A stretch of DNA of 32,099 nt from Betaproteobacteria bacterium (GCA_050257255.1 JBLMWN010000106.1:1-32099); one strand, 5' to 3'; positions 10,680-25,659 are shown, counted from the stretch's first letter. Notes: generated by a model not told the origin, from the letters alone. Program-made: numbers and translations.

Positions 10680-10880
10680 ATGCAATTCAAAATCACGACA
10701 GATAAATGCACCGGATGCGGGACGTGCAAGGACATCTGCCCCACCGAAGCGATCATAATTGAAAACGGTAAAGCAGAAATCACCTTGGAGTGCATCGACT
10801 GCGGAGCGTGCCCACGTGCCTGCCCCGAGGGCGCGATCAAGACCCAGGTGTCGTCCGCACTGGTATCAACAGTAAAATAA
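10680..10880 (+). CDS. 2x[4Fe-4S] ferredoxin
   Basis: [12 protein letters not shown] and [12 protein letters not shown] motifs. Confidence 0.92.
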
Positions 10881-10896
10881 TTTTGAGGAGGCTGGC

Positions 10897-11220
10897 ATGG
10901 CGGAAGCGGTTACGAGCGCAACATGGGAACAGGAAGTGCTGAAAGCGTCAGGTCTTGTCCTGGTGGACTTCTGGGCGGTCTGGTGCGGGCCCTGCAGGAT
11001 GGTAGCTCCGATTGTAGAGGAGATCTCGAAGGAATACGAAGGAAAAATCAAAGTCCTCAAACTTAATACGGACGAGAACCCCGATGTGGCCGGAAAATAC
11101 CGCATTATGGGCATTCCAACCCTGATGTTCTTCAAGGGCGGGCAGACCGTCGACCAGGTGGTCGGGGCCGTTCCGAAGGCGCAGCTCAAGACAAAAGTTG
11201 ATGCGCTGCTCGCGAAATAA
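10897..11220 (+). CDS. trxA: Thioredoxin
   Basis: [15 protein letters not shown]; RBS GAGGAGG. Confidence 0.95.
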
Positions 11221-11278
11221 GAAGTGACGCCCTTCAGCATGCTTCGGGCTCAGCTTTTCGCCAGGTGTTAATTCAATT

Positions 11279-11306
11279 GCTGCCCGCCTCAGGCGGGCAG
11301 TTTTCA
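11279..11306 (+). terminator. Probable intrinsic terminator after trxA
   Basis: CTGCCCGCC / GGCGGGCAG hairpin followed by TTTT. Confidence 0.6.
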
Positions 11307-11340
11307 TTTTTGTTCTGCGCAGCACAAGGAGATCGGTTCA

Positions 11341-11829
11341 ATGTTCAAAAGATTTTTTGCAGTATCCGTTCTGATTATCGCGACCCTGTTCGCCTGTACC
11401 GAAAAGAGCGCCCAGTCAGGCGGCGCCGTCGCCTCCGATTTCACCCTGCAGGACCTGAACGGGAAAAACGTTAAGCTCTCTGACTATAAGGGGAAGGTGG
11501 TCCTTCTCGATTTCTGGGCGACCTGGTGCCCCCCGTGCCGCGCGTCGATTCCTGCCATCGAGAAGATCCATAAGATGTATAAGGACAAGGGGCTGGTGGT
11601 GCTCGCTGTCTCGCTCGATGACGGCGGCTGGGATTCTGTGAAATCTTTTATCACCGAGTATGGCATTACGTACACCGTGCTCAAAGGCACTGAAGATGTG
11701 GCCGTGAATTATATGGTTCGCACGATCCCGATGCTGCTTGTCCTCGACAAGCAAGGCCGGATCTCAAAACGGTATCTCGGGTTTGGAGATGAAGAAGACC
11801 TGGAGAACGACATCAAGGCCGTCCTGTAG
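11341..11829 (+). CDS. TlpA/ResA-like thiol-disulfide oxidoreductase lipoprotein
   Basis: Lipobox LFAC, DFTLQDLNG, DFWATWCPPC. Confidence 0.9.
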   Translation: MFKRFFAVSVLIIATLFACTEKSAQSGGAVASDFTLQDLNGKNVKLSDYKGKVVLLDFWATWCPPCRASIPAIEKIHKMYKDKGLVVLAVSLDDGGWDSVKSFITEYGITYTVLKGTEDVAVNYMVRTIPMLLVLDKQGRISKRYLGFGDEEDLENDIKAVL

Positions 11830-11962
11830 CGGTTTGCACTTCCGGTTTTTGGGTGACTCCGAAACAGGCATCAGATTCTCGGTGAATTGAAACAATCCTC
11901 CCTTTCTGACAGGACCGCGAAAGCGTTTGATACCGCTGGATGTTCTTATTCTGTTTTCGTGG

Positions 11963-11991
11963 TTGACATCATCTATGCCTGCCGCTATAAT
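11963..11991 (+). promoter_or_regulatory. Consensus sigma70 promoter of tRNA-Gly
   Basis: TTGACA (11963-11968), 17 bp spacer, TATAAT (11986-11991), 11 nt before the tRNA. Confidence 0.88.
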
Positions 11992-12002
11992 GTTTTTCTA
12001 AA

Positions 12003-12078
12003 GCGGGCGTAGCTCAGCTGGTAGAGTACAAGCTTCCCAAGCTTGGGGTCGCGGGTTCGAAACCCGTCGCCCGCTCCA
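12003..12078 (+). tRNA. tRNA-Gly (anticodon CCC)
   Basis: Acceptor GCGGGCG/CGCCCGC, D arm AGCTCAGCTGGTAGAGT, anticodon arm CAAGC-TTCCCAA-GCTTG, T arm GCGGG-TTCGAAA-CCCGT, encoded CCA; 76 nt. Confidence 0.97.
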
Positions 12079-12091
12079 ATTTTCGGTTTTT

Positions 12092-12120
12092 AATCCGTGA
12101 GTTTATCTCACGGATTTTTT
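12092..12120 (+). terminator. Intrinsic terminator after tRNA-Gly
   Basis: AATCCGTGAG-TTTAT-CTCACGGATT perfect stem followed by a T run. Confidence 0.8.
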
Positions 12121-12610
12121 GTTTGTCCAAGAGTTGTCCGAGTCCATCCACCATCCAAGCCCTCTGCCGTATCTTTCTCTTTCTCCGTCCTGATGCCGTG
12201 TACGGCCCTCCCGCGTTCGAGGATTTCACCAACGACAACGTACGAGACCGAAAGATTAAGCAGGTCTCATGTTCTCGCAGTTGGCAACCTGGGAGCACGT
12301 GTCATCAGGCGTATACGTGATCTCGCCGCGTCGTTCTAGTACGAGCATATGGGGCAGGATATGCAGGATATCTGGTAAGAGCATTAAACATGTCATCAAT
12401 GTGAGTGATCGGTGCGGATTTTGCCCAGTCCAGGACGTCGAAGAAGGGATGAATAGCTTATCTACATTTCGTTTGACTTCGCGTAGGCGAGAGGATGCCC
12501 GGGCCGTTGGTCATGACAATTTAAAATTTCCCCCCTTACACAAACGCTGATGAACGTCATCCCTTATCCATGATAAATACAAAATGCTATGCTCTATATT
12601 AGAGCTGCCT

Positions 12611-13027
12611 ATGAAAAACTTTATTTACTTACTCGCTGCGCTTGCACTTTTCGCATGTGGACAAGACAATCAAGCGCCCCCCGTAGTAGACCTCTCAAAT
12701 ACTACTATAGTGTGGGAAGGTAATATTCAAGAAAATTCGGATTTCATGGTCACCTATAATGATGTAAAGCAATGCCTCGAATCTTTTGGCTTAGTGAATA
12801 ATGCCGTGCCGCCTTATGTGGTTCTCACTGAGAAATTTAAAACATTTATCTGCGACGGGCAGGTGGTCACCGGCTGTGCTTTATTCAACACAAATACCAT
12901 CTATGTGCCAGAACAAGCCACATGGGGCACACAATATATCTTTAAACATGAGCTGGTCCATATAATTTCTCATCTCGGTAATGATGCCCATAACACGAAA
13001 CCTTGTGTCATCTGCTCCGAAATGTAA
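12611..13027 (+). CDS. Hypothetical lipoprotein with HExxH (HELVH) zincin-like motif
   Basis: MKNFIYLLAALALFAC lipoprotein signal; FKHELVHIISH; visibly AT-richer than flanking genes. Confidence 0.65.
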   Translation: MKNFIYLLAALALFACGQDNQAPPVVDLSNTTIVWEGNIQENSDFMVTYNDVKQCLESFGLVNNAVPPYVVLTEKFKTFICDGQVVTGCALFNTNTIYVPEQATWGTQYIFKHELVHIISHLGNDAHNTKPCVICSEM

Positions 13028-13578
13028 GTATACTATACATTATGATTCCTGATTCATGTCTGGCCGTCCTGCTTTGCACTTAGCTGCAACAGGTTGCACC
13101 CCTGCTGTTGACATGGTCAACGGCAGGGGATCATTCGCTGAATTTCACATGAACCCTGCGGTGGCACGGCAGAATGTTCCTGTGTATAGCATTCGGGTGG
13201 ACCGTCTGCATCGGCAACAGTTACTGATCGGGCGGCTACGAATAAAATCGTTCAAAAACTGTAATGCTAAAAGCCTACAGTAAACATCGTCCTATTCGTA
13301 GATTTACCATATGGTATAATTCATTTATACGACTATCCATCTCTCACAATTTAACAACTAAAATATATATTCAGTTCCCGTTTGAAGAATACAATAACGC
13401 TTGAATGCTCAAGTAAGTCATCGGACGGGGCTGAAGCAATATAACATCACCAAGTTTATATCAAATATAACTAAATATCTTTATAGCTAAAGACAGAACG
13501 TTGCAAGAGGATTATGATTTTGTTTTCTCTGGAACGCGCGGTTGGGATTGTGACCGGAAGCGCACAAAGGAGGATTGA

Positions 13579-16302
13579 ATGGCTATTTCACGGAGAGGTT
13601 TTATCAAGATTTGCGCCCTGGGCGCCGGGGCCGCGGCAGGATCGCACTTTTTCCGCCTGGCCGATGCGATCCCGGGCATGGAGCAGCAGGAGGGCACCGG
13701 CGTGCTTGAATACGTGCGGTCCACCTGTTCGCCGAACTGCACCGGAGCCTGCGGATTTAATGCCATGGTCTACAAGGGCAGGATCCAATCCCTGGTCCAG
13801 GCAGCCGACTACCCCGAGGCGGAGTACAATCCGAGAGGATGTCTCCGGGGGCAGTCCTCGCTCAACCTCATCTACGGCCCGGATCGGCTCAAACAGCCGC
13901 TCGTCAGGGTCGGCAAGCGGGGCGAGGGAAAGTTCAAGGCCGTGAGCTGGGACGAGGCCCTTGACTACGTCTCGGACAAGCTCGCCGGGATCACGCAGAA
14001 ATACGGGCCCGAGTCCGTGGTGGGTAATATCCAGGTGCCGGGCACGGGCTACGTGCACAAAGGTGCGCTTATGCGCCTCGCTTCCATGAATGAATGGAGC
14101 ATCATCCACGCCTATACGATGAACGGCGACCTGCCGGCGTTCTGGCCCATGACCTTCGGCGTCCAGACCGAGGAGCTGGAATCTCTGGAGTGGACCAATT
14201 CGAAATACACGATGATCCTGGGCTCCAATGTGATGGTCACGCGCGTGCCCGACGCAAAGTTCCTGAACATCAGCAGGGAGAACGGCAATAAGGTTGTCGT
14301 GGTCGATCCGAATTACAGCCCTACGGCAGCCAAGGCCGATGAATGGATCCAGATTAATCCCTCCTCCGACGCCGCTTTTGCCATGGGCATCGTGAGCGTT
14401 ATCGTGAACGAAAAGCTCTATGACGAAGAATTCATCAAGACCAACACCGACATGCCCCTCCTGGTCCGGCTCGACAACAACAAAAAGCTCCTTGCAGCCG
14501 ACGTGGCTTCCCTGTCCGGCCGGGCGAAGGAGCGTAAGAAAAAGATCCCCGAATACCGCGACCTGTACGTTGTGTATAACATGAATACCAAAGGCTATGC
14601 CATCCCCGATCCCGAAAACCTGAAGCGGGACTTCGATCCCGCGCTCGAAGGGGAGTTCGAGGTTTATCTCACCGGCGGGAAGAGGGTGAAGGTGAAGCCG
14701 GTGTTCCAACTCCTTACGGAATACGTGAACGCCCATTATACGCCGGAAATGGCGGCCCGCATCATCGCTCCTGAAGAGTCCCGGATCACGGAATATACAG
14801 ATATGATCAAAAGGATCGCCCGTGAAATGGCCACGCACAAGCCGCTCCATATCGTCTACGGCGCGAGCAACTACCAGTGGTACCACGGTGACCTGAAGGG
14901 CAGGGCGCTTTCACTCATCGTCACCCTGACCGGAAACCTCGGCAAGTCCGGGGCGGGCATCTCGACTTACGCGGGACAGTATCGCGTCCGCTGGCCCCTG
15001 GGCGCCTGGTGGGCCTTCAAGGGCAAGATGAACAAGTGGACGAACTACCTGCTCTGGATGAACGACGAGTACCGCAACGGCGAGGAGTTCAAGAAATACG
15101 GCAAGGATATCCCGTATCCCAAGAACGGGATCAAGGCCTTCATCTACGGCTGGGGGAACCCCTTCGACCAGCACAACATGGCGAACCGGATGCGCGAGAA
15201 GGCCACAAGCGGAGAGCTCGAACTGATCGTGACAACCGATTTCCAGATGAGCACATCCTGCCTCTGGTCCGATGTGGTGCTTCCCGGCGTTGCGTGGTAC
15301 GAGAAGTACGAGCTCACGGCAACGATCCCCCATCCCTACATCCAACTGCAGCAGCCCGCCATCGAGCCCCTGTTCCAGTGCATGCCCGAACTCTGGATCT
15401 ACAAAGAGATCGCAAAGAGGCTCGCGCACAAGACCGGCAACCAGGAGAACATCAAGAGCATCGCCGAATTCTATCCCGATCCGCAGGTGTACTTGGAGGA
15501 AGAAGCTGCGAGAAAGAACGGGACCTGGACGCTCAAGCTCGCACGTCAGCTCACGAACAAGGCCTCGCTCGATGCCGCGGCGCTCATGCTCAAGACCGGC
15601 GGACCTACGGTGAAGGACATCACCATTGACATGCTTAAGCAAGGCCCGGTGAGAATGAACCTGGCCACGCCGAACAAGAGGCAGATCATGTTCTACGAGC
15701 AGGTACACGATCAGAAGGCGTTCCCGCCCCCGTCCTTCCCTGCGCCTCTCCCGAAGACGGCGCGGTTCGTCAAGAGCGGCAGGATCGAGTTCTACAAGGA
15801 CGAAGACATCTTCATCGAAACAGGCGAGACGCTGCCCGGGCACAAAGACCCCTTCAAGGACACGGAGAACCGGAAACGGGGGGAGAAGGACAAATACAAG
15901 CTCGCCCTGATCACGCGGAACTCTCTTTACCGGGTCCACTCGACGCACAGCAACAATATCAGCCTGCTCGAACTCCAGGACTTCAAGCCGAAGATCTGGC
16001 TCAATCCGAAAGCAGCCGCGGAGCGGGGCATCAAGGAAGGCGACCACGTGGAAGCCTTCAACGACCGGGGCAAGGTCCTGGGGTACGCGGTCCTCGACCC
16101 CGGCCTGCACCATGCCGTGGCCGTGTTCGAAGAGGGTTGGTGGAGCAAGTATACCTTAGGCACATCCTATAACACACTCACCTATCCGTGGATCAAGGCA
16201 GCGCATGTTATCTACTTCACGCCCGGCATTTGGGAGCCCACGACGGCCTGGAACGAGTGCGCCTGCGAAGTGAAAAAGGCCGGGGAGGTAAGCCATGCGT
16301 AA
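13579..16302 (+). CDS. Tat-exported Mo/W-bis-PGD oxidoreductase catalytic subunit (DMSO reductase family, type II/Nar-like)
   Basis: Tat motif SRRGFIK; FS0 motif CSPNCTGAC-x29-C; NGDLP..P.TFGVQT matching the NarG Asp-ligand loop; VDPNYSPTAAKADEW; SDVVLP; C-terminal RVHSTH domain; RBS AAGGAGG. Confidence 0.9.
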   Translation: MAISRRGFIKICALGAGAAAGSHFFRLADAIPGMEQQEGTGVLEYVRSTCSPNCTGACGFNAMVYKGRIQSLVQAADYPEAEYNPRGCLRGQSSLNLIYGPDRLKQPLVRVGKRGEGKFKAVSWDEALDYVSDKLAGITQKYGPESVVGNIQVPGTGYVHKGALMRLASMNEWSIIHAYTMNGDLPAFWPMTFGVQTEELESLEWTNSKYTMILGSNVMVTRVPDAKFLNISRENGNKVVVVDPNYSPTAAKADEWIQINPSSDAAFAMGIVSVIVNEKLYDEEFIKTNTDMPLLVRLDNNKKLLAADVASLSGRAKERKKKIPEYRDLYVVYNMNTKGYAIPDPENLKRDFDPALEGEFEVYLTGGKRVKVKPVFQLLTEYVNAHYTPEMAARIIAPEESRITEYTDMIKRIAREMATHKPLHIVYGASNYQWYHGDLKGRALSLIVTLTGNLGKSGAGISTYAGQYRVRWPLGAWWAFKGKMNKWTNYLLWMNDEYRNGEEFKKYGKDIPYPKNGIKAFIYGWGNPFDQHNMANRMREKATSGELELIVTTDFQMSTSCLWSDVVLPGVAWYEKYELTATIPHPYIQLQQPAIEPLFQCMPELWIYKEIAKRLAHKTGNQENIKSIAEFYPDPQVYLEEEAARKNGTWTLKLARQLTNKASLDAAALMLKTGGPTVKDITIDMLKQGPVRMNLATPNKRQIMFYEQVHDQKAFPPPSFPAPLPKTARFVKSGRIEFYKDEDIFIETGETLPGHKDPFKDTENRKRGEKDKYKLALITRNSLYRVHSTHSNNISLLELQDFKPKIWLNPKAAAERGIKEGDHVEAFNDRGKVLGYAVLDPGLHHAVAVFEEGWWSKYTLGTSYNTLTYPWIKAAHVIYFTPGIWEPTTAWNECACEVKKAGEVSHA

Positions 16303-17044
16303 ACTGGGAATGGTCATTGATCTCAATCGCTGCATCGGGTGCAGGAGCTGTGCCGTAGTCTGCAAGATTCACAACTCGCTTCCGCCGGGGACCTGGTGGC
16401 AGCGCGTCGAGACCGTGGGATCGCAGGAACACTTGATCCCTGTCGGCGAATACCCCGATCTGTCCGAAGTTTTTCTGCCGGTGCCGTGCCAGCACTGCGA
16501 CAACGCGCCCTGCGTCAAGGTCTGCCCGGTGAAAGCCACCTGGCAGCGGGAAGATGGGCTCGTGCTTGTGGACTACGAGCGCTGCATCGGGTGCCGGTAC
16601 TGCATGACAGCGTGCCCTTACGGGGTCCGGCAGTTCAACTGGCAGGATTCCGAAAAAAGCTTCAAGGAAGGTTTCAAGAAGGCGGGCTTCGAGGAGAACT
16701 GGTTCGCGGACAAAGACTATCGTTTCGGCTACCCCCTCGACCATCGGACAAAGGACGGAAGGCTCGTGTTCACGCAGAAGAGACCCAGGGGCGTGGTGGA
16801 GAAATGCACGTTCTGCGTCCAGTATGTGGACCAGGGTCTCCTTCCCGCATGCGTTCGCGGGTGCCCGGGCAACGCCAGAACCTTCGGCGACCTGAACGAT
16901 CCGGACAGCGAAATTTCCAGGATCATCCGCGGTCGGAACGTGTTCAAACTGATGTCTGACCTTGGCACGGAGCCCAAGGTTTTCTATATTCCGCCGGCGC
17001 GGAAGGAAGGGAAAGGAGGCATCCACTATGGAAAAAAGGTATAA
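16295..17044 (+). CDS. 4x[4Fe-4S] electron-transfer subunit (DmsB/NrfC/PsrB type)
   Basis: CIGCRSCAVVC, CQHCDNAPCVKVCP, CIGCRYCMTACP, KCTFC...PACVRGCP. Confidence 0.93.
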   Translation: MRKLGMVIDLNRCIGCRSCAVVCKIHNSLPPGTWWQRVETVGSQEHLIPVGEYPDLSEVFLPVPCQHCDNAPCVKVCPVKATWQREDGLVLVDYERCIGCRYCMTACPYGVRQFNWQDSEKSFKEGFKKAGFEENWFADKDYRFGYPLDHRTKDGRLVFTQKRPRGVVEKCTFCVQYVDQGLLPACVRGCPGNARTFGDLNDPDSEISRIIRGRNVFKLMSDLGTEPKVFYIPPARKEGKGGIHYGKKV

Positions 17045-18299
17045 CTCTGTCGTGGCGATCCTTGCCGTACTGGTGGGCGTCGGCGTGGTCGCCTGGATAT
17101 ATCAGCTGAGCACGGGCCTGATCGCGACCGACATGAGAAACGGTTTTTCCTGGGGCTTGTACATCGCGACCTGGGCGTTCTTCGTTGGAACCGCTGCAGG
17201 AGGTCTCGTAGTCTCCTCCGCCATCTATCTTTTCGGGGCCAAGCAATTGAAGCCCATCGCCAAGGTGGCATCGCTCACGGCCTTTCTCTTCGCCATGGGT
17301 GCGATGATCATCCTGCTTCCGGACATCGGCAGGCCTGACCGGCTCTATTATTTTCTGCTCCATCCGAATTTTAAATCCATGCTGCCCTGGGACGTGATCG
17401 TCCTGTCGGGCTACGCCGCGGTATCGGCAATCTACACCTATACGCTGCTCTATCCCGATATCGTGGCCCGGGGAGTCGCAGTGCCGTTCATCGGTGTTGT
17501 CGGCAAAAGGAACGTAAGCGAAGCTGAGCTTGCCAGGCTCCGGGAGATATCGGATAAACGCGCAAAGAACCTGGCGCCTGTGGCCCTGCCGCTTGCCATC
17601 CTCATCCATACGGTCACCGCCTGGGTGCTCGCGACCCAGATGGCGCGGCCTTGGTGGTACGGCGGCGTGCTGGCCCCCACGTTCATTGCTGCCGCCCTGG
17701 CCAGCGGCCCGGCCATCGTGATCCTTGCCTCCCTCGTCGTATACGGGTACAAGGAAAAACTGGAGGGCACCTATGCGCTGCTCGCCAAGGTATCGGCTGT
17801 CGCATCGGTCATTATGCTTTTTATCTACTACAATGACTTCGTCGTGCGGCTTTGGTGGAACGCGGGACGTGAGTTCGAGGCATTAAAGCTGGTGTTTACC
17901 CGGTATCCCCTGTTCCACGCCACAGAGGTGGTCTTTATCTTGCTGGCAACGATTATCTTCATCAAGTACCCGAAGGACCCGAAAAAGCTGGTCCTGGGGA
18001 GCATCTCCGTCGTTGTGGGCGTTTTCGCGCATCGTATCCTGCTCCTGCCGCCTGCCTACAATAATATGCCGCTCAGGCTGCCGGTAATGCTGCACAACGA
18101 GACGATGGAGTGGTCCTATCCCATCTCTGTGGGACAGGTGCGAGGCTCTCTCCTCCACCCGCAAAAAATATTCATGTCGTTCTATGACTATTTCCCTTCT
18201 TCCGTGGAAATCATAATCACTATTGGCGTTATGGCTCTTCTCGGCCTCGCGTTCCTGGGACTGATGAAGATGCTGCCGATGAGGGAGTCTGAACAATGA
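17028..18299 (+). CDS. NrfD/PsrC-family membrane anchor (quinol-interacting subunit)
   Basis: WGLYIA..FFVG.AAG, DIGRPDR, PNFKSMLPWD, IHTVTAW, RPWW; many hydrophobic helices; RBS AAAGGAGG before ATG 17028. Confidence 0.9.
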   Translation: MEKRYNSVVAILAVLVGVGVVAWIYQLSTGLIATDMRNGFSWGLYIATWAFFVGTAAGGLVVSSAIYLFGAKQLKPIAKVASLTAFLFAMGAMIILLPDIGRPDRLYYFLLHPNFKSMLPWDVIVLSGYAAVSAIYTYTLLYPDIVARGVAVPFIGVVGKRNVSEAELARLREISDKRAKNLAPVALPLAILIHTVTAWVLATQMARPWWYGGVLAPTFIAAALASGPAIVILASLVVYGYKEKLEGTYALLAKVSAVASVIMLFIYYNDFVVRLWWNAGREFEALKLVFTRYPLFHATEVVFILLATIIFIKYPKDPKKLVLGSISVVVGVFAHRILLLPPAYNNMPLRLPVMLHNETMEWSYPISVGQVRGSLLHPQKIFMSFYDYFPSSVEIIITIGVMALLGLAFLGLMKMLPMRESEQ

Positions 18300-18799
18300 A
18301 CCCCTATCGGTATTTTTCGCTGATTTTTTCCTATCCCACGGAGCAAAACAGAAGAGACCTCGGGAAACTATCACTGGTCGAGGGAGTGGCGGGACTTCGT
18401 TCCGCGGAAATCCTCGGCGCCGTCAGCCTGGAGGAGCTTCAGGCGGAGTACACGCGGCTTTTCATTTCCGCCTACCCAAAGCTTATCTGTCCGCCCTATG
18501 AGTCATACTATAGAGAGGGGATTGTCTATGGGAATTCCTCGATCGAAGTAGGAGAGTGGTACCAGAAGCGCGGTCTCGACTTCATCTGCGAGGGAGAACC
18601 CGCGGACATCGTCAGCGCAGAGCTGGAATTTCTGGCGATCACGAACGACGGCCCGTTTCTCAGGAGAATGAAGAAATGGATCTTCGAGTTTACCGGCAAC
18701 GTGAAGCAGAACTCAACGATCTATGGCCCCTGCGCCGATGAATTGGAAAAGTTTTTAATGCAACAGGAGGGAACGGAGACGGCCGTTCCGGTCGTATGA
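18296..18799 (+). CDS. TorD/DmsD-family molybdoenzyme maturation chaperone
   Basis: EYTRLF, PPYESYY, EPAD...ELEFL motifs (His of the usual DH replaced by Ile); ATGA overlap with the anchor gene. Confidence 0.82.
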   Translation: MNPYRYFSLIFSYPTEQNRRDLGKLSLVEGVAGLRSAEILGAVSLEELQAEYTRLFISAYPKLICPPYESYYREGIVYGNSSIEVGEWYQKRGLDFICEGEPADIVSAELEFLAITNDGPFLRRMKKWIFEFTGNVKQNSTIYGPCADELEKFLMQQEGTETAVPVV

Positions 18800-19041
18800 A
18801 ACCAGCGACCGCATGAATGATGGGAGTGAAGCAGGGAAAAAGAAGCCACACCCCGAGACCCCGCATTCAAATCGGTCTCAGCGGGAAGGAAAATCACGTT
18901 TCAAGAATACCCGGAATATTTTCCGGTTTGATCCTCGCTGGACGGCGAATATCAGCAGCCTTTAATGTCGCATTGAAGCCCGCCGCAGAGCCACGGAGAA
19001 ATAGATTGATTGCAGAGAACTTGATCAATGGGAGGAAGATC

Positions 19042-19695
19042 ATGTCCATCGCTCAGAGCGCTGCATCTCGAGTCATATCTGAATTCGAAACATTGCTCCA
19101 AGAATCGGCGAAGACCCATGGCCACCTTTGCCCCGGCCAGGTGCTGGGAGTCAGGATGTCGCTTCTCGGCCTCGGGGAGATCGGCGTCTTGGACCCAAAG
19201 GGAAAAGACCGGAAAAGCATCATGGTCTTCGTCGAAATGGACAGGTGCGCCACGGATGCCGTACAGTCCGTCACGGGATGCAGCCTGGGACGCAGAACCA
19301 TGAAGTTCCTGGACTACGGCAAGATGGCGACGACGTTCCTGAACCTGAAGACGGGCAAGGCTATGCGGATCATTGCCCGTGAGGACTCTCGCGAGAAGAC
19401 ACGGCAGTATTTCCCTGACATTGAGAACAAATACGCGGCACAGCTTGAGGCATACAAGGTCATGTCCGATGCAGAGCTTTTCGACGTGATGGAGGTGACC
19501 GTTAAAGTCGCCCCCGAGGACTTGCCCGGGAGGCCGATGCGAAGGGTGCGGTGCGATTCGTGCGGCGAGCACGTTCAGGATATGAGAGAGGTCTATCGGA
19601 ACGGAAAGGTCCTGTGCCTTCCCTGCGCCGAGGGCGGCTACTATTACGAATCGAACAAACCCTTTTTGGCGGTGCGTTATGCGAAAAACCCATAA
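19042..19695 (+). CDS. FmdE/FwdE-family protein with C-terminal Zn finger
   Basis: HGHLCPGQVLG, VEMDRCATDAVQSVTGCSLG, CDSCGE...CLPC; RBS GGGAGG before ATG 19042. Confidence 0.88.
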   Translation: MSIAQSAASRVISEFETLLQESAKTHGHLCPGQVLGVRMSLLGLGEIGVLDPKGKDRKSIMVFVEMDRCATDAVQSVTGCSLGRRTMKFLDYGKMATTFLNLKTGKAMRIIAREDSREKTRQYFPDIENKYAAQLEAYKVMSDAELFDVMEVTVKVAPEDLPGRPMRRVRCDSCGEHVQDMREVYRNGKVLCLPCAEGGYYYESNKPFLAVRYAKNP

Positions 19696-19697
19696 CG
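19675..19697. promoter_or_regulatory. Candidate ModE operator overlapping the modE start codon
   Basis: Perfect inverted repeat CGTTATG-N9-CATAACG resembling ModE-box half-sites. Confidence 0.6.
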
Positions 19698-20042
19698 GCC
19701 TGGATATAAGATCAAAGATATGGATCGAGCTCAACGGTGAACCGGTCTTCAGCCGGGGCAGGCGCTTTCTCTTGGAGGCCATAGACACCCACGGTTCTAT
19801 CAACAAGGCGGCGCACGATGTCGACATCTCCTTCCGCAAGGCGTGGGGCCATATCAAAGCCATGGAAGAGCGGCTCGGCGAAGCTTGTGGACCGGCAAAC
19901 CGGCGGAAAGAATGGCGGAGGCACGAAGCTAACGGCTGATGCGCGGAAATTTTTGAAAAAATACGAAGCCCTGGAAAAAGGCATTCAAGAGTTCGTCGAT
20001 AAGCGATTCAGGACCATCTTCAAGGGAGGCTCCCATGTGTGA
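19679..20042 (+). pseudogene. modE: ModE-type winged-helix regulator (HTH only), frameshifted near 19880
   Basis: KIWIE..GEPVFSRGRRFLLEAIDTHGSINKAA..ISFRKAWGHIKAMEERLG continues in the next frame as KLVDRQTGGKNGGGTKLT; junction GGC-G-AAG-CTT. A sequencing error is possible. Confidence 0.8.
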
Positions 20043-21237
20043 CAGCGTTCATGATCAGCAAAGACATGGTACGAAATCCATACCCGTTCAGCAAGCCATC
20101 GGTACGGTCCTCGCCCACGACATAACCGAGATACGGCCTGGTGAATTCAAAGGCTGCGCTTTTAAGAAGGGGCACATAATCAGAGAAGAGGACGTTTGCC
20201 ATTTGCAGAGAATCGGCAAGGATCATCTCTTTGTGCTCCAGGTCGCCGAAGATGAAATGCACGAAAACGATGCAGCCTATGAGCTCGCGAACGCCTTGAT
20301 GGGAGAAGGGGTCGCTATCAAGGGAGAGCCAAGGGAAGGCAAGATCAGCATCATCGCGGACCGCGACGGCCTTCTTAAGATCAACAAGGATGCGCTCCTG
20401 GCGTTCAATATGCTGGGAGACGTCATGTGCGCCACACTTCATAACAATACGGTTGTCAAAACAGGACAGACCGTAGCAGGTACGAGAGCGATCCCGCTGG
20501 TCGTGAAGAAGAGCGTGGTTGAAGAAGCTGCCAGAATTGCGAGGGAAGTTCAAAGTTCCACGTTCAAGGTTCAAGGTTCGGAATCCGCACTCCGCAATCC
20601 TAAACCCGAAATGAATAAACCCAATGGAATCATAGAAGTCAAGGAACTCAGAAAGCCGAGAGCCGGCGTGGTCATCACGGGCAACGAAGTCTATCACGGC
20701 AGGATTAAGGACGCTTTCGCGCCGATCATTGCCAAAAAGATCGAAGCATGCGGCGGCGAGATCATGGGCATTTATTATGCTCCCGATGACGAGCACTATA
20801 TCGAAGACAGGCTGCGTGAACTTTTGAAAGCCGGCGCGGATCTTCTGGTCACCACTGGTGGCATGTCAGTCGACCCCGACGACGTGACCCGCTTTGCAAT
20901 TCGGAACCTCGGCGTGACGGACTTCATCTACGGCTCTGCCGTGCTGCCGGGAGCCATGTTTCTGGTGGCGTACCTTGAGAGAGTGCGGAGTCCGGAGTGC
21001 GAGGTTCGGAGTGAAGAAAACTCACAACATAAGACGCGAAACGCGGATCTGATCCCCATTCTGGGGATTCCCGCCTGCGGCATGTATGCGAAGACCACGG
21101 TTTTTGACCTGATGCTCCCTAGGGTCCTCGCTGGGGAGAGGCTCGGGAGGACGGATCTTGCCGAAATGGGACACGGCGGCTTGTGCATGCACTGCGAGGT
21201 CTGCCGTTACCCGGTTTGTCCCTTCGGGAAAGGGTAA
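20035..21237 (+). CDS. MoeA-like molybdopterin-binding protein with C-terminal Cys cluster
   Basis: AIGTVLAHDITEIRPGEFKG, VITGNEV, TGGMSVDPDDVT, YGSAVLPGAM, PACGMY, terminal GGLCMHCEVCRYPVCPFGKG. Confidence 0.85.
   Translation: MCDSVHDQQRHGTKSIPVQQAIGTVLAHDITEIRPGEFKGCAFKKGHIIREEDVCHLQRIGKDHLFVLQVAEDEMHENDAAYELANALMGEGVAIKGEPREGKISIIADRDGLLKINKDALLAFNMLGDVMCATLHNNTVVKTGQTVAGTRAIPLVVKKSVVEEAARIAREVQSSTFKVQGSESALRNPKPEMNKPNGIIEVKELRKPRAGVVITGNEVYHGRIKDAFAPIIAKKIEACGGEIMGIYYAPDDEHYIEDRLRELLKAGADLLVTTGGMSVDPDDVTRFAIRNLGVTDFIYGSAVLPGAMFLVAYLERVRSPECEVRSEENSQHKTRNADLIPILGIPACGMYAKTTVFDLMLPRVLAGERLGRTDLAEMGHGGLCMHCEVCRYPVCPFGKG
20548..20610. repeat. In-frame heptamer tandem repeat inside the MoeA-like gene
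   Basis: GTTCAAA GTTCCAC GTTCAAG GTTCAAG GTTCGGA ATCCGCA CTCCGCA ATCCTAA ACCCGAA (9 units, 63 bp). Confidence 0.8.
20981..21015. repeat. Second heptamer tandem repeat inside the MoeA-like gene
   Basis: GAGTGCG GAGTCCG GAGTGCG AGGTTCG GAGTGAA. Confidence 0.75.
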
Positions 21238-21372
21238 ACGAACAGTTATGTGATCGGGCTTTATTTGCGGGATCGAATATAATTTTTATGCCCTTGCCTC
21301 GAGACCCCTGCCTCCTTCCGGAAAGCCACTTGTAAAGTAAAATTGAGGTGCTTTTGATAACAAAATTAAAGA

Positions 21373-21402
21373 TTGACAGTACCTATCTCTTTGATTTATT
21401 AT
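21373..21402 (+). promoter_or_regulatory. sigma70-like promoter pointing into the att-like repeat
   Basis: TTGACA (21373-21378), 18 bp spacer, TATTAT (21397-21402). Confidence 0.55.
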
Positions 21403-21423
21403 CTTTCCGGGTCCGGGGCAGCA

Positions 21424-21451
21424 GCGGGTTTAAGACCCGTCGCCCGCTCCA
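21424..21451 (+). repeat. Duplicated tRNA-Gly 3' end (att-like direct repeat)
   Basis: GCGGGTTTAAGACCCGTCGCCCGCTCCA vs tRNA GCGGGTTCGAAACCCGTCGCCCGCTCCA; three mismatches, all in the T loop. Confidence 0.88.
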
Positions 21452-21490
21452 TTTAAATTAAACAGCATTCCATCCGTTACTATACTGTGA

Positions 21491-21521
21491 CCCCGCCTGA
21501 TGATACAGGTGGGGGTTTTTT
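21491..21521 (+). terminator. Intrinsic terminator downstream of the tRNA-end repeat
   Basis: CCCCGCCTG-ATGATA-CAGGTGGGG stem followed by GTTTTTT. Confidence 0.75.
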
Positions 21522-21535
21522 GTCTAGGAAACGCC

Positions 21536-22189
21536 ATGGCATCACTAATATTAAACATTCTGTTTGCAGTTGCCCTGTTTTTTTGCGGTCCTGCATGGGC
21601 GGAAGACCGGGTCGTGATCGCGGATTTTTCGTCCGGCGTCGATTCTGCAGGCATACCGGTCGGGTGGCAGGTTAAAGAAAAATCCGGCAAGGCGGATTTC
21701 TCGGTCGTCAAGGACGGCGACATCTCAGCGGTTCGGTTCCGGAGCGCGAACACGTCTTTCTCCCTCCAAAGAGAAGTGAATGTGGACCTCAAGAAGTTCC
21801 CGATTCTCACCTGGAAATGGAAAGTGACCAAACTGCCGGCTGGAGGGGATTTCAGAAAATCGAAGACCGATGATCAGGCTGCGCAACTCTTCGTTGCATT
21901 CACCAAGACCAAGTCGATCGTCTACATCTGGGACACGAGCGCACCGCAGGGTCTTTCGGAGGACACGACGCCGGTTCCCTTCATGCATGTCAAGGTGGTA
22001 GTCGTGCGATCCGGTCCTGCAGGGACGGGGATGTGGATCACCGAGACCCGGAACGTATATGAAGATTACAAGAAGCTCTTTGGCGAGGAACCACCACCGG
22101 TAAACGGCATGCGGCTCCAGATTAACTCTCAGCACACCGGGACATCGGCCGAGAGTTACTTTGCGGATGTAGCGTTTAAAAAACAGTGA
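21536..22189 (+). CDS. DUF3047-family exported protein
   Basis: Signal peptide ..PAWA; PILTWKWKV, DDQAAQLFVAF, IVYIWD, WITETRNVYEDYKKLFGEEPP, SQHTG..AESYF. Confidence 0.8.
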   Translation: MASLILNILFAVALFFCGPAWAEDRVVIADFSSGVDSAGIPVGWQVKEKSGKADFSVVKDGDISAVRFRSANTSFSLQREVNVDLKKFPILTWKWKVTKLPAGGDFRKSKTDDQAAQLFVAFTKTKSIVYIWDTSAPQGLSEDTTPVPFMHVKVVVVRSGPAGTGMWITETRNVYEDYKKLFGEEPPPVNGMRLQINSQHTGTSAESYFADVAFKKQ

Positions 22190-22200
22190 AGCGGTTTTTG

Positions 22201-22268
22201 CCACGAACTTGCACGGGAATTAGGCATCAGAACGATTCAATCCGTGTTCATCAGTGTTCATCCATGGT
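22201..22268. repeat. Intergenic decamer repeat element
   Basis: ATCCGTGTTC ATCAGTGTTC ATCCATGG with loosely complementary left arm CCACGAACTT GCACGGGAAT. Confidence 0.6.
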
Positions 22269-22289
22269 CCCAATGATTTAGGCTTTTCG

Positions 22290-22811
22290 ATGGCAGGGAA
22301 AATTTATTTCATCACCGGCGGAGCGCGTTCGGGGAAGTCGGCATATGCCGAGAATCTTGCACGCGGCCTGACCGGCAAGCGGGCATACATCGCGACGGCA
22401 CAGGCGCTTGATGCCGAAATGGCGGCGAAGATCGCAAAACACCGCAAGGACCGCGGCGACACCTGGGATACCTATGAAGAGCCGCTTGCCGTGGCGGAGC
22501 TCCTGCGGAAACTCTCAAGCCGGTACCAGGTGGCGCTCCTCGACTGTCTCACGCTCTGGCTGAGCAATGTCATGGCGCATACGCACGGCGACGACGCTGC
22601 TCTCTCCCGCGTAGAAGACCTGGTGAAGGCCATTACAGACTTCGGCGGCATGTGCATCGTGGTATCGAACGAGGTAGGGCTCGGCATTGTGCCTGACAAT
22701 CCGCTTGCAAGGAGATTCCGGGATTTCGCCGGGATGCTGAATCAAAAGGTTGCGCAAACAGCGGATGAAGTGTATTTTACGGCTGCGGGAATACCGGTGA
22801 GAATAAAATAA
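22290..22811 (+). CDS. cobU: Adenosylcobinamide kinase / adenosylcobinamide-phosphate guanylyltransferase
   Basis: ITGGARSGKS, YIATA, TYEEP, DCLTLWLSN, VSNEVGLGIVP, RRFRD. Confidence 0.95.
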   Translation: MAGKIYFITGGARSGKSAYAENLARGLTGKRAYIATAQALDAEMAAKIAKHRKDRGDTWDTYEEPLAVAELLRKLSSRYQVALLDCLTLWLSNVMAHTHGDDAALSRVEDLVKAITDFGGMCIVVSNEVGLGIVPDNPLARRFRDFAGMLNQKVAQTADEVYFTAAGIPVRIK

Positions 22812-25488: not shown

Positions 25489-25547
25489 AAGTGCTCGAAA
25501 AGCTATTGACTTTGACTTGCCGGTCCTGTATTGTACAACCATCATAA

Positions 25548-25632
25548 AGCTGGGGGAGCCGAATTGGCTGAGAGTCCTGCGGGAGGACGACCCTTAGAAC
25601 CTGATCCGGGTTGTGCCGGCGTAGGGAAGGCG
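25548..25632 (+). ncRNA. TPP riboswitch aptamer
   Basis: GGGGAGCC..GGCTGAGA...ACCCTTAGAACCTGATCCGG....GCCGGCGTAGGGAA; upstream of the thi operon; candidate promoter TTGACT(25506)-17-TATTGT(25529). Confidence 0.95.
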
Positions 25633-25659
25633 AATAATAAGCAACATAAAACCCTTCGT

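Follow-up and report, generated by a model that had tools for sequence, protein, structure and literature searches.

Features of the locus

The window analysed here is the whole stretch of 32,099 nucleotides of JBLMWN010000106.1, part of a fragmented metagenome-assembled genome (MAG) of 334 contigs that is 86.6% complete, with a 2.54-Mb assembly. In it an intact tRNA-Gly(CCC) gene is followed, 9.4 kb downstream, by a displaced copy of the tRNA 3' end. The segment between the two holds fragments of a tyrosine-integrase gene, an AT-rich spacer, a four-gene operon for a molybdenum (Mo) oxidoreductase, and FmdE-, ModE- and MoeA-like genes. Positions 12079-21451 are probably (at about 0.8) what decay has left of a site-specific integrative element in the 3' end of the tRNA-Gly(CCC) gene, now immobile, with a horizontally acquired and mosaic respiratory cargo. 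The features that define the element are as follows.

12003-12078, plus strand: tRNA-Gly(CCC) gene, intact (ARAGORN; Rfam tRNA model, 66.1 bits)
12051-12078, plus strand: attL, the copy of the repeat formed by the tRNA 3' part (repeat match)
12092-12502, minus strand: remnant of a tyrosine-integrase gene in three pieces, at about 12098-12154, 12156-12235 and 12426-12502, with the catalytic region missing (tblastn, blastn)
21424-21451, plus strand: attR, the displaced original tRNA 3' end, 25/28 (repeat match)
21491-21514, plus strand: T1, the original tRNA terminator (terminator scan), with homologous hairpins at two empty sites (L021 2501-2524 and L022 2275-2298)

The tRNA is the single one found in the window by ARAGORN and Rfam. 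Its 3' 28 nucleotides recur at 21424-21451 in the same orientation, with three mismatches that all fall in the T-loop and with the last 17 nucleotides identical. The two copies lie 9373 nucleotides apart, start to start, and form the longest two-copy direct repeat among those listed for 11-23 kb. At up to three mismatches the 28-mer has two matches in the window, compared with 0.00 expected from 100 dinucleotide-preserving shuffles, and the 17-nucleotide core (up to one mismatch) occurs at these two places only in the whole assembly. An earlier note made from the window alone had described this repeat of the tRNA 3' end about 9.4 kb downstream, and the match of 25/28, with none in the shuffles, bears it out. 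The two copies are genuine attL and attR sites of an element that entered the tRNA 3' end by means of a tyrosine integrase.

The site in related genomes

The locus was compared with a family set of 64 genomes, in which the window's own genome (G000) is counted, and with a set of 14 congeners, which carry the label Nitrospirota in their record titles. Synteny of the tRNA with the TlpA-like gene upstream holds in 14/14 congeners. In five of the 14 (G001, G003, G007, G010 and G014) the site is empty and the core is present once. In the empty sites the T1 hairpin, which is G+C-rich and followed by a T-run, lies about 35 nucleotides after the tRNA and the start of cobU 20-30 nucleotides further, all within about 100 nucleotides. 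Window positions 21424-21529, comprising attR and T1, align to the tRNA end plus its flank in empty G001 and G007. The empty site foreseen in the earlier note was the tRNA followed directly by the terminator, a DUF3047 gene and cobU; tRNA, T1 and cobU are indeed contiguous in these five congeners, and the DUF3047 gene is not there.

Four of the 14 congeners (G002, G004, G006 and G011) have an occupied site with both ends on one contig, and carry other inserts between the same repeats. The G002 insert measures 12.8 kb and contains the core three times as well as DDE and ISL3 transposases. That of G006 is 15.9 kb, with three PF00589 integrases, and is followed by a further 3.4 kb before cobU. 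The inserts of G004 and G011 are 1730 bp each and contain a multihaem cytochrome c gene. This mini-island of the sister species (L025:1956-3685 in G011 and L026:2593-4322 in G004) holds only that gene, of the Paired_CXXCH_1 family, and an integrase remnant. The remaining five congeners (G005, G008, G009, G012 and G013) have an island-type left flank, with the right end on another contig or not found; G013 has the repeat fragment, T1 and cobU on a second contig.

At the middle copy in G002, and in G006, the downstream core copy is followed by another left-end hairpin and not by T1, and these are therefore junctions between tandem elements. Such attP-like junctions, made of right arm, core and left-end hairpin, lie within the occupied sites at L029:13632-13800 (G002) and L030:5560-5777 (G006) and indicate tandem arrays. 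The tRNA-Gly site is a hot spot in the genus: it is empty in some species, holds other cargo in others, and has tandem elements in two. The earlier note had named the same cargo in all relatives as the pattern that would speak for simple vertical inheritance; no relative has similar cargo at this site.

Remnants of the integrase gene

An integrase that would be cognate to the site is present in G006, where an open reading frame (ORF) of 263 residues (L031:1320-2111) abuts the tRNA in convergent orientation and matches PF00589 (4.9e-20) and a PHROG integrase (6.5e-30). The ORF holds the catalytic domain; a possible N-terminal part lies in another frame just upstream. PHROGs searched against 21 G006 ORFs, of 25 proteins scanned, found integrases and one weak replication-initiation match. 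A tblastn search of the window with the G006 integrase matched residues 242-260 at 16/19 positions (E 9e-7) and residues 160-183 at 14/26 (E 0.009). These two matches share a frame and are adjacent, and G006 residues 184-241, which carry the Arg-His, Gly-His and Tyr motifs visible in the protein sequence, are absent from the window. At the nucleotide level three segments match the G006 gene by blastn: 12092-12153 (95%), 12156-12211 (75%) and 12426-12502 (82%).

Longer remnants of the same gene occur at the same position in G002 (residues 167-255), G004 (195-257) and G011 (209-259). By these alignments the window holds the most eroded copy of the series. No PF00589 match was found in the window by Pfam, and no intact integrase gene was found between the repeats. 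The whole assembly contains two full PF00589 genes (on C26 and C273) and two 88-residue fragments at contig ends. Identity between these full genes and the G006 integrases is 22-31%, and no close homologue of the cognate integrase was found elsewhere in this 86.6%-complete assembly. Since the catalytic region of the integrase is gone, the island is probably fixed by now.

The earlier note had called the island integrase-less, with no integrase recognisable. This is right for an intact gene and strictly wrong for the locus, where fragments of a tyrosine-integrase gene persist at 12092-12502. Its description of the island as old agrees with the fact that only gene fragments are left.

Ends of the element

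Both ends of the insert carry transcription signals.

11963-11991, plus strand: promoter-like site before the tRNA, TTGACA-17-TATAAT, 12/12 (consensus scan)
12092-12116, plus strand: T2, an island-borne terminator hairpin, now ending the tRNA transcript (terminator scan)
21352-21423, plus strand: conserved right arm with an outward promoter-like site at 21373-21402, TTGACA-18-TATTAT, 11/12 (promoter scan)

The T2 hairpin overlaps the 3' end of the integrase gene. It follows the tRNA in G004, G006, G009 and G011, occurs as variants in G005, G008, G012 and G013, and is absent from the five empty sites. Two congeners with an empty site have the same 12/12 promoter-like site ahead of the tRNA. A scan of these two sites showed no other consensus promoter between the terminator of the upstream gene and cobU.

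At the right end about 75 nucleotides are conserved among islands that differ in cargo, and the promoter-like site within them faces attR. When seven right ends are aligned (A1), TTGAC does not vary, nor does most of the second hexamer, but the spacer is variable. A search with the exact pattern found the layout of the arm in 5/64 family genomes with no control matches; the pattern misses copies with a mismatch or a longer gap, namely those of G004, the right copy of G002, and G006. One of the five, G044, belongs to another genus. There, a promoter-like arm and a tRNA-Gly 3' fragment lie at L118:2286-2400 with a different downstream flank, and no tRNA or cobU was found within 5 kb of the arm. 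The arm and the tRNA-Gly fragment in G044 mean that the element family extends beyond the genus.

A tentative suggestion is that this element family is self-compensating, a conserved outward promoter of the sigma-70 type, 20-30 nucleotides before the displaced tRNA end, replacing lost transcription of cobUTSC. Integration would sever the cobUTSC operon from the tRNA promoter, and transcription from the arm promoter would again run on through T1 into the cob genes. The retention of the hexamers in 7/7 right ends while the spacer drifts is in favour of such promoter replacement, as is the recurrence of the layout in G044. If true, the tRNA would be a permissive landing pad at which cargo, including whole respiratory modules, is swapped serially.

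A small RNA of the tRNA-minihelix type, transcribed from the right-arm promoter, was considered and rejected. The single sequence folds well (z -2.82); in the seven copies, 0/10 pairs are compensatory and the covariation term is unfavourable.

The cargo genes

The cargo occupies the space between the integrase remnant and the right arm.

12561-13578, no strand assigned: AT-rich, foreign-looking spacer, 41.5% G+C compared with 54.7% for the genome (composition)
12611-13027, plus strand: small lipoprotein-like ORF with a HExxH-like motif (HELVH) near its C-terminus
13579-16302, plus strand: A, catalytic Mo-bis(pyranopterin guanine dinucleotide) subunit of 907 residues with a twin-arginine leader (PF04879, PF00384, PF01568)
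16295-17044, plus strand: B, iron-sulfur subunit with four clusters, 249 residues (Fer4_11 and related families)
16962-18299, plus strand: C, NrfD/PsrC-type membrane anchor, start codon uncertain (PF03916, 4.3e-63)
18296-18799, plus strand: D, NarJ/TorD/DmsD-like chaperone (PF02613, 2e-16)
19084-20039, plus strand: FmdE (zinc ribbon) and a ModE-N-like helix-turn-helix (HTH) region (Pfam on ORFs 18817-19695 and 19679-19939)
20035-21237, plus strand: MoeA-like protein, the last cargo gene (PF00994, MoCF_biosynth, the sole domain recognised, 2.2e-19)

The gene content given in the earlier note, a four-gene oxidoreductase operon with fmdE-, modE- and moeA-like genes and flanking genes on both sides, was borne out by Pfam. 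No conjugation, replication or phage genes were found in the window island.

The translation of A shows the twin-arginine motif RRGFIK. Its best NCBIfam model is TIGR03479, the alpha subunit of type II dimethyl sulfoxide (DMSO) reductases, at 510.4 bits, below the cut-off of 984.75. The best solved relative is chain A of 4ydd (3.6e-111), which we take to be perchlorate reductase. Asp184 of A aligns with Asp170 of 4ydd, presumably the Mo ligand, and an Ala aligns with Phe164. By these matches A is related to the type II DMSO reductase family (Nar/Pcr/Ebd/Ser lineage) and is not PcrA. The best NCBIfam models for B are DsrO (203.7 bits), ArrB (197.3) and TtrB (189.8); TIGR03478 reaches 134.7 bits, with a cut-off of 480.7. 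D matches the DmsD and type II chaperone models below their cut-offs. The module was found without the signature partners of type II enzymes: no NarH-type beta subunit reaches the cut-off, and the membrane subunit is NrfD, with no haem gamma subunit. C is predicted to oxidise quinol, B to pass the electrons on, and A to reduce a periplasmic substrate.

The downstream genes are less regular. Pfam recognises FmdE and zf-dksA, followed by HTH_1, with TIGR00637 at 9.2e-11. A fused homologue of 343 residues (L039:9166-10197) aligns by tblastn in three pieces, each in a frame of its own: frame 1 for residues 27-212, frame 2 for 222-289 and frame 3 for 291-343. Contig depth is lowest at this region, 1.13 in the bin 19622-20022. 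Either the FmdE/ModE-N-like gene is truly broken or the assembly has two indel errors. All MoeA models match the MoeA-like protein far under their cut-offs.

The spacer 12561-13578 has no DNA match in any congener locus. The lipoprotein-like ORF within it has a G+C fraction of 0.435 at third codon positions (percentile 0) and a codon-usage percentile of 3. It has no Pfam, NCBIfam or PHROG match; six unnamed homologues, on short contigs, are 71-90% identical. The Mo genes reach codon-usage percentiles of 21-99 among 1026 long ORFs of the genome, with A and B among the best adapted. The host-like codon usage claimed earlier for the cargo therefore holds for the Mo genes and fails for 12561-13578.

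Distribution and exchange of the cargo

Subunit A (E<=1e-100) is found in 4/64 family genomes including the window's own, the others being G004 (93% identity), G059 (81%) and G078 (79%); within the genus it is in 2/15 genomes. Beyond the family the nearest relatives, by record title, are from Nitrospirota/Dissulfurispiraceae (81%), Caldimicrobium/Thermodesulfobacteriaceae (70%) and Thermosulfurimonas (66%), with many Bacillota at about 50-56%. The order A-B-C is kept in 74/80 related loci; the sequence of the remaining six stops inside A or B or shortly behind them. By tblastn at E<=1e-8, a threshold that is harsh for short proteins, 15 of the 80 loci gave a D-like chaperone, 8 a MoeA-like gene in the vicinity, 5 an FmdE and 1 the HTH. 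One locus, L039, has the same order A-B-C-D-FmdE-HTH-MoeA as the window.

In three of these loci (L038-L040) the operon lies among ordinary genes, and no integrase or transposase was found among the 25 flanking ORFs scanned there. No tRNA was found in L038-L043 (0/6 loci). The G004 copy shares a contig with the tRNA-Gly, at a distance of 28 kb; it consists of A to D and FmdE, without the HTH or MoeA-like gene, and lies between a multihaem cytochrome gene and nuoA. The earlier note had proposed that the enzyme and its cofactor genes are packaged as one travelling unit; this is not supported, as the operon stands elsewhere in a chromosomal context without a tRNA or mobile gene nearby.

At three other loci, all labelled Nitrospirota, a gene for a multihaem cytochrome of about 450 residues (PF13447) lies directly upstream of A: L027:13620-15011 (G004), L038:8576-9952 and L040:8610-9956. 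It is missing in the window.

The comparison with G004 separates A to D from the rest of the cargo.

13506-18821, plus strand: 5.3-kb block, A to D plus 73 nucleotides upstream, 89.3% identical to the G004 copy at a different locus (blastn)

Homology to G004 starts only 73 nucleotides before the start codon of A. The flanks of both loci are 69-76% identical and fmdE is 71.5% identical. At 4-fold degenerate sites, identity to G004 is 71% in A, 63% in B, 80.6% in C and 85.7% in D. The corresponding values for core genes are 48.3% for AddB, 63.5% for orf124, 36.1% for TlpA, 45.5% for cobU and 46.2% for cobT; FmdE is at 44.6%. Codon usage of C and D is ordinary (percentiles 58 and 47), and codon bias is therefore not the cause of the similarity to G004. 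Given this synonymous excess over the core genes, A to D were probably exchanged with the G004 lineage at a later time than the species split. Compared with its closest relative the module is a mosaic, and the breakpoint falls between the chaperone gene D and fmdE. The presence in 4/64 family genomes, the excess similarity of A to D and the AT-rich 1 kb together indicate that the cargo is accessory and was probably acquired horizontally.

Proposed history and alternative explanations

Recombination by a tyrosine integrase put the element into the 3' end of the tRNA-Gly(CCC) gene. The element brought a new tRNA 3' end together with its own terminator, forming attL and leaving the tRNA intact, and the original 28-nucleotide tRNA end with T1 was displaced 9.4 kb downstream as attR, before cobUTSC. 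The integrase gene beside the tRNA was later reduced in place to fragments. The comparison establishes the arrangement of the att sites, the existence of empty sites, the fragments of the integrase gene, the patchy occurrence of the cargo and the excess similarity of A to D. The order of events is inferred, and the odds are about even that the Mo module is a later or remodelled cargo in an already resident island and did not arrive with it.

Several observations weigh against a decayed element with acquired, mosaic cargo. The Mo genes are host-like in composition, and no genome examined has the enzyme module within an island of this family. G004, and not the window genome, may be where the D-FmdE breakpoint formed. 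The G004-type locus (tRNA-Pro, cytochrome, operon, nuoA) is unassembled in the window genome, where contigs C154 and C110 end at its borders. In a single-locus tree of the flank (1.2 kb), the empty sites of G001, G003, G010 and G014 form one clade and G007 stands apart, with a weak backbone; this tree is compatible both with an old insertion followed by precise losses and with repeated insertions, and cannot separate them. Finally, among the contig pieces listed, none bridges attL (12039-12104) or 12598-13765, and contiguity there is that of the deposited assembly. These pieces come from three sequencing runs of one study, one of which held 63% of the sampled words, with contigs placed on 10800-22800.

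A single delivery, in which the whole 9.4 kb (integrase, AT-rich part and seven Mo-related genes) came as one element and only the integrase decayed later, is possible and the less likely course. The cargo does lie wholly inside the interval from the integrase remnant to the conserved right arm, and enzyme and cofactor genes do occur together in other taxa (the MoeA-like gene in 8/80 loci, FmdE in 5/80, the full order in L039). However, the module is in none of the other islands at the site, its other loci lack a tRNA (0/6) or a mobile gene in the flanks examined, and A to D differ sharply from FmdE in their divergence from G004. In addition, the integrase remnants of G002, G004, G011 and the window resemble one old gene decaying in place. 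Much less probable is an island still mobile in trans through an integrase encoded elsewhere. It would find attachment sites that share 25/28 nucleotides, 17 of them identical, and related elements with integrases do exist in the genus. The two full PF00589 genes of the 86.6%-complete assembly are nevertheless only 22-31% identical to the G006 integrases, and no contig of the three runs, from which rare variants are dropped, joins 12078 to 21452, so that this contig-level check for excision is a weak one. The earlier note had offered trans-mobilisation as an option; no evidence for it was found, and no close homologue of the cognate integrase lies elsewhere in the assembly.

The displaced 28-mer might instead be the relic of a second, tandem tRNA-Gly gene with no mobile element involved, and the strong promoter-like site about 20 nucleotides upstream of the fragment is what would be expected before a tRNA gene. 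This is the least credible of the alternatives, and the remnant of a separate tRNA gene that the earlier note had envisaged is contradicted by the empty sites. Genomes with an empty site have one tRNA and one T1, and the sequence after their intact tRNA is the one found after the window fragment. The intact tRNA of the window is followed by element sequence including the integrase remnants. The same layout of fragment and promoter bounds inserts with integrases or insertion sequence (IS) elements. Acceptor-stem pairing is not conserved, with 0/10 predicted pairs compensatory. A chimera of the MAG assembly, with the operon misjoined to the tRNA-cob region at the repeated tRNA sequence, is also very improbable. 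The MAG is fragmented and of low depth; contigs of the run with 63% of the sampled words cover the entire stretch 10800-22800 at low depth, and depth at the tRNA bin is 162 compared with 2-9 elsewhere, inflated by other organisms. With attL unbridged by the listed pieces, a misjoin there could be imagined. Yet attR is bridged by an independent contig piece of 1092 nucleotides (21123-22214, one difference), which spans the 3' end of the MoeA-like gene, attR, T1 and DUF3047. The left junction runs into integrase-remnant sequence as in five congeners, and a chimera would need both ends to be misjoined in register with the att anatomy. A decayed integrative element remains the preferred reading.

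Genes outside the island

The insert is flanked, according to Pfam, by AddAB and a TlpA/ResA-like thiol-disulfide protein upstream and by DUF3047 and then cobU-cobT-cobS-cobC downstream.

21537-22189, plus strand: DUF3047 gene, outside the island (PF11249)

Among the genomes with both T1 and cobU on one contig, a DUF3047 gene between them was found in the window only. Homologues lie elsewhere in G001, G002, G004, G010 and G011, and 4.3 kb upstream of cobU in G009. The gene has a codon-usage percentile of 0, and its DNA is 81-86% identical to the copies of G005, G009, G012 and G013 compared with 72-78% for neighbouring core genes. It is a separate addition between T1 and cobU, and possibly another small mobile gene.

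At gathering thresholds Rfam found in the window solely the tRNA and, elsewhere, a thiamine pyrophosphate (TPP) riboswitch, with no molybdenum cofactor or other riboswitch upstream of the operon. The TPP riboswitch lies downstream of the cobC-like gene at 25542-25644 on the plus strand and scores 70.4 bits, the gathering score being 54.3.

Significance and comparison with known systems

A complete quinol-linked molybdoenzyme module belongs to the flexible genome of these uncultured Nitrospirota, as judged from the decayed island, the presence in 4/64 genomes and the recent exchange between species. Metabolic traits read from such MAG operons should be treated as variable between strains or species and not as traits of a lineage. 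The series at one site, from empty through the 1.7-kb mini-island and 9-16-kb islands to tandem arrays, could exemplify island domestication and cargo replacement, and shows a single integrase gene in five states of decay.

Classical tRNA-targeting islands, prophages and integrative and conjugative elements (ICEs) integrate at the tRNA 3' end and rebuild the tRNA. The displaced end is attR, the integrase gene lies beside the tRNA, and elements accrete in tandem. ICEclc reportedly integrates in a tRNA-Gly of Pseudomonas and has an outward-facing promoter at one end that drives the integrase after circularisation. In contrast, the window integrase is dead, and its gene is convergent with the tRNA, an orientation in which circularisation would not place it under the control of the right-end promoter.

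A literature search on molybdoenzyme islands in Nitrospirota returned nothing on this locus. A further search returned only papers on the MOLY cluster, plus an unrelated note on NrfD-type complexes in Acididesulfobacillus. In the portions of those papers available, MOLY consists of molybdopterin oxidoreductase A and B subunits with a TorD/DmsD-like chaperone, is proposed as a marker of sulfur disproportionation, and is reported in Desulfobacterota and Nitrospirota (PMC9676032, PMC12998232). The likeness of the window module is one of description and of the taxon labels of A's relatives only, and serves as a lead for function; these partial descriptions make no mention of an NrfD subunit, which the window module has (PMC9676032, PMC12998232). 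The enzyme represents an uncharacterised branch that is widespread and lies close to the type II DMSO reductases, and with relatives in sulfur-disproportionating lineages it is a reasonable biochemical target.

The closest precedent, as far as the available sections of its report go, is the genomic island for perchlorate reduction (PRI) of Azospira. Its direct repeats are 48 bp of a tRNA-Pro and it has a xerD-like site-specific recombinase inside; the flanks are contiguous in strains without the island, and in related genera other islands occupy this tRNA (PMC4623255). As in that account of the PRI, tRNA-derived direct repeats in the window enclose a respiratory operon, chaperone included, whose lineage is that of the type II DMSO reductases (PMC4623255). 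The two differ, on the same partial description, in that the window target is tRNA-Gly(CCC), the repeat is 28 nucleotides and the recombinase is in fragments. The window catalytic subunit falls below the subfamily cut-off and has Ala, not Phe, at the position aligned with residue 164 of 4ydd, and its partners are DsrO/ArrB-like and NrfD-type proteins in place of a NarH-type subunit and a haem protein. No chlorite dismutase family gene was found, with 0 matches to PF06778 in the 86.6%-complete assembly; the control matched 7/14 known genomes. The mechanism of the island is already known from such systems, and the locus is a real, ordinary feature with a tidy comparative series.

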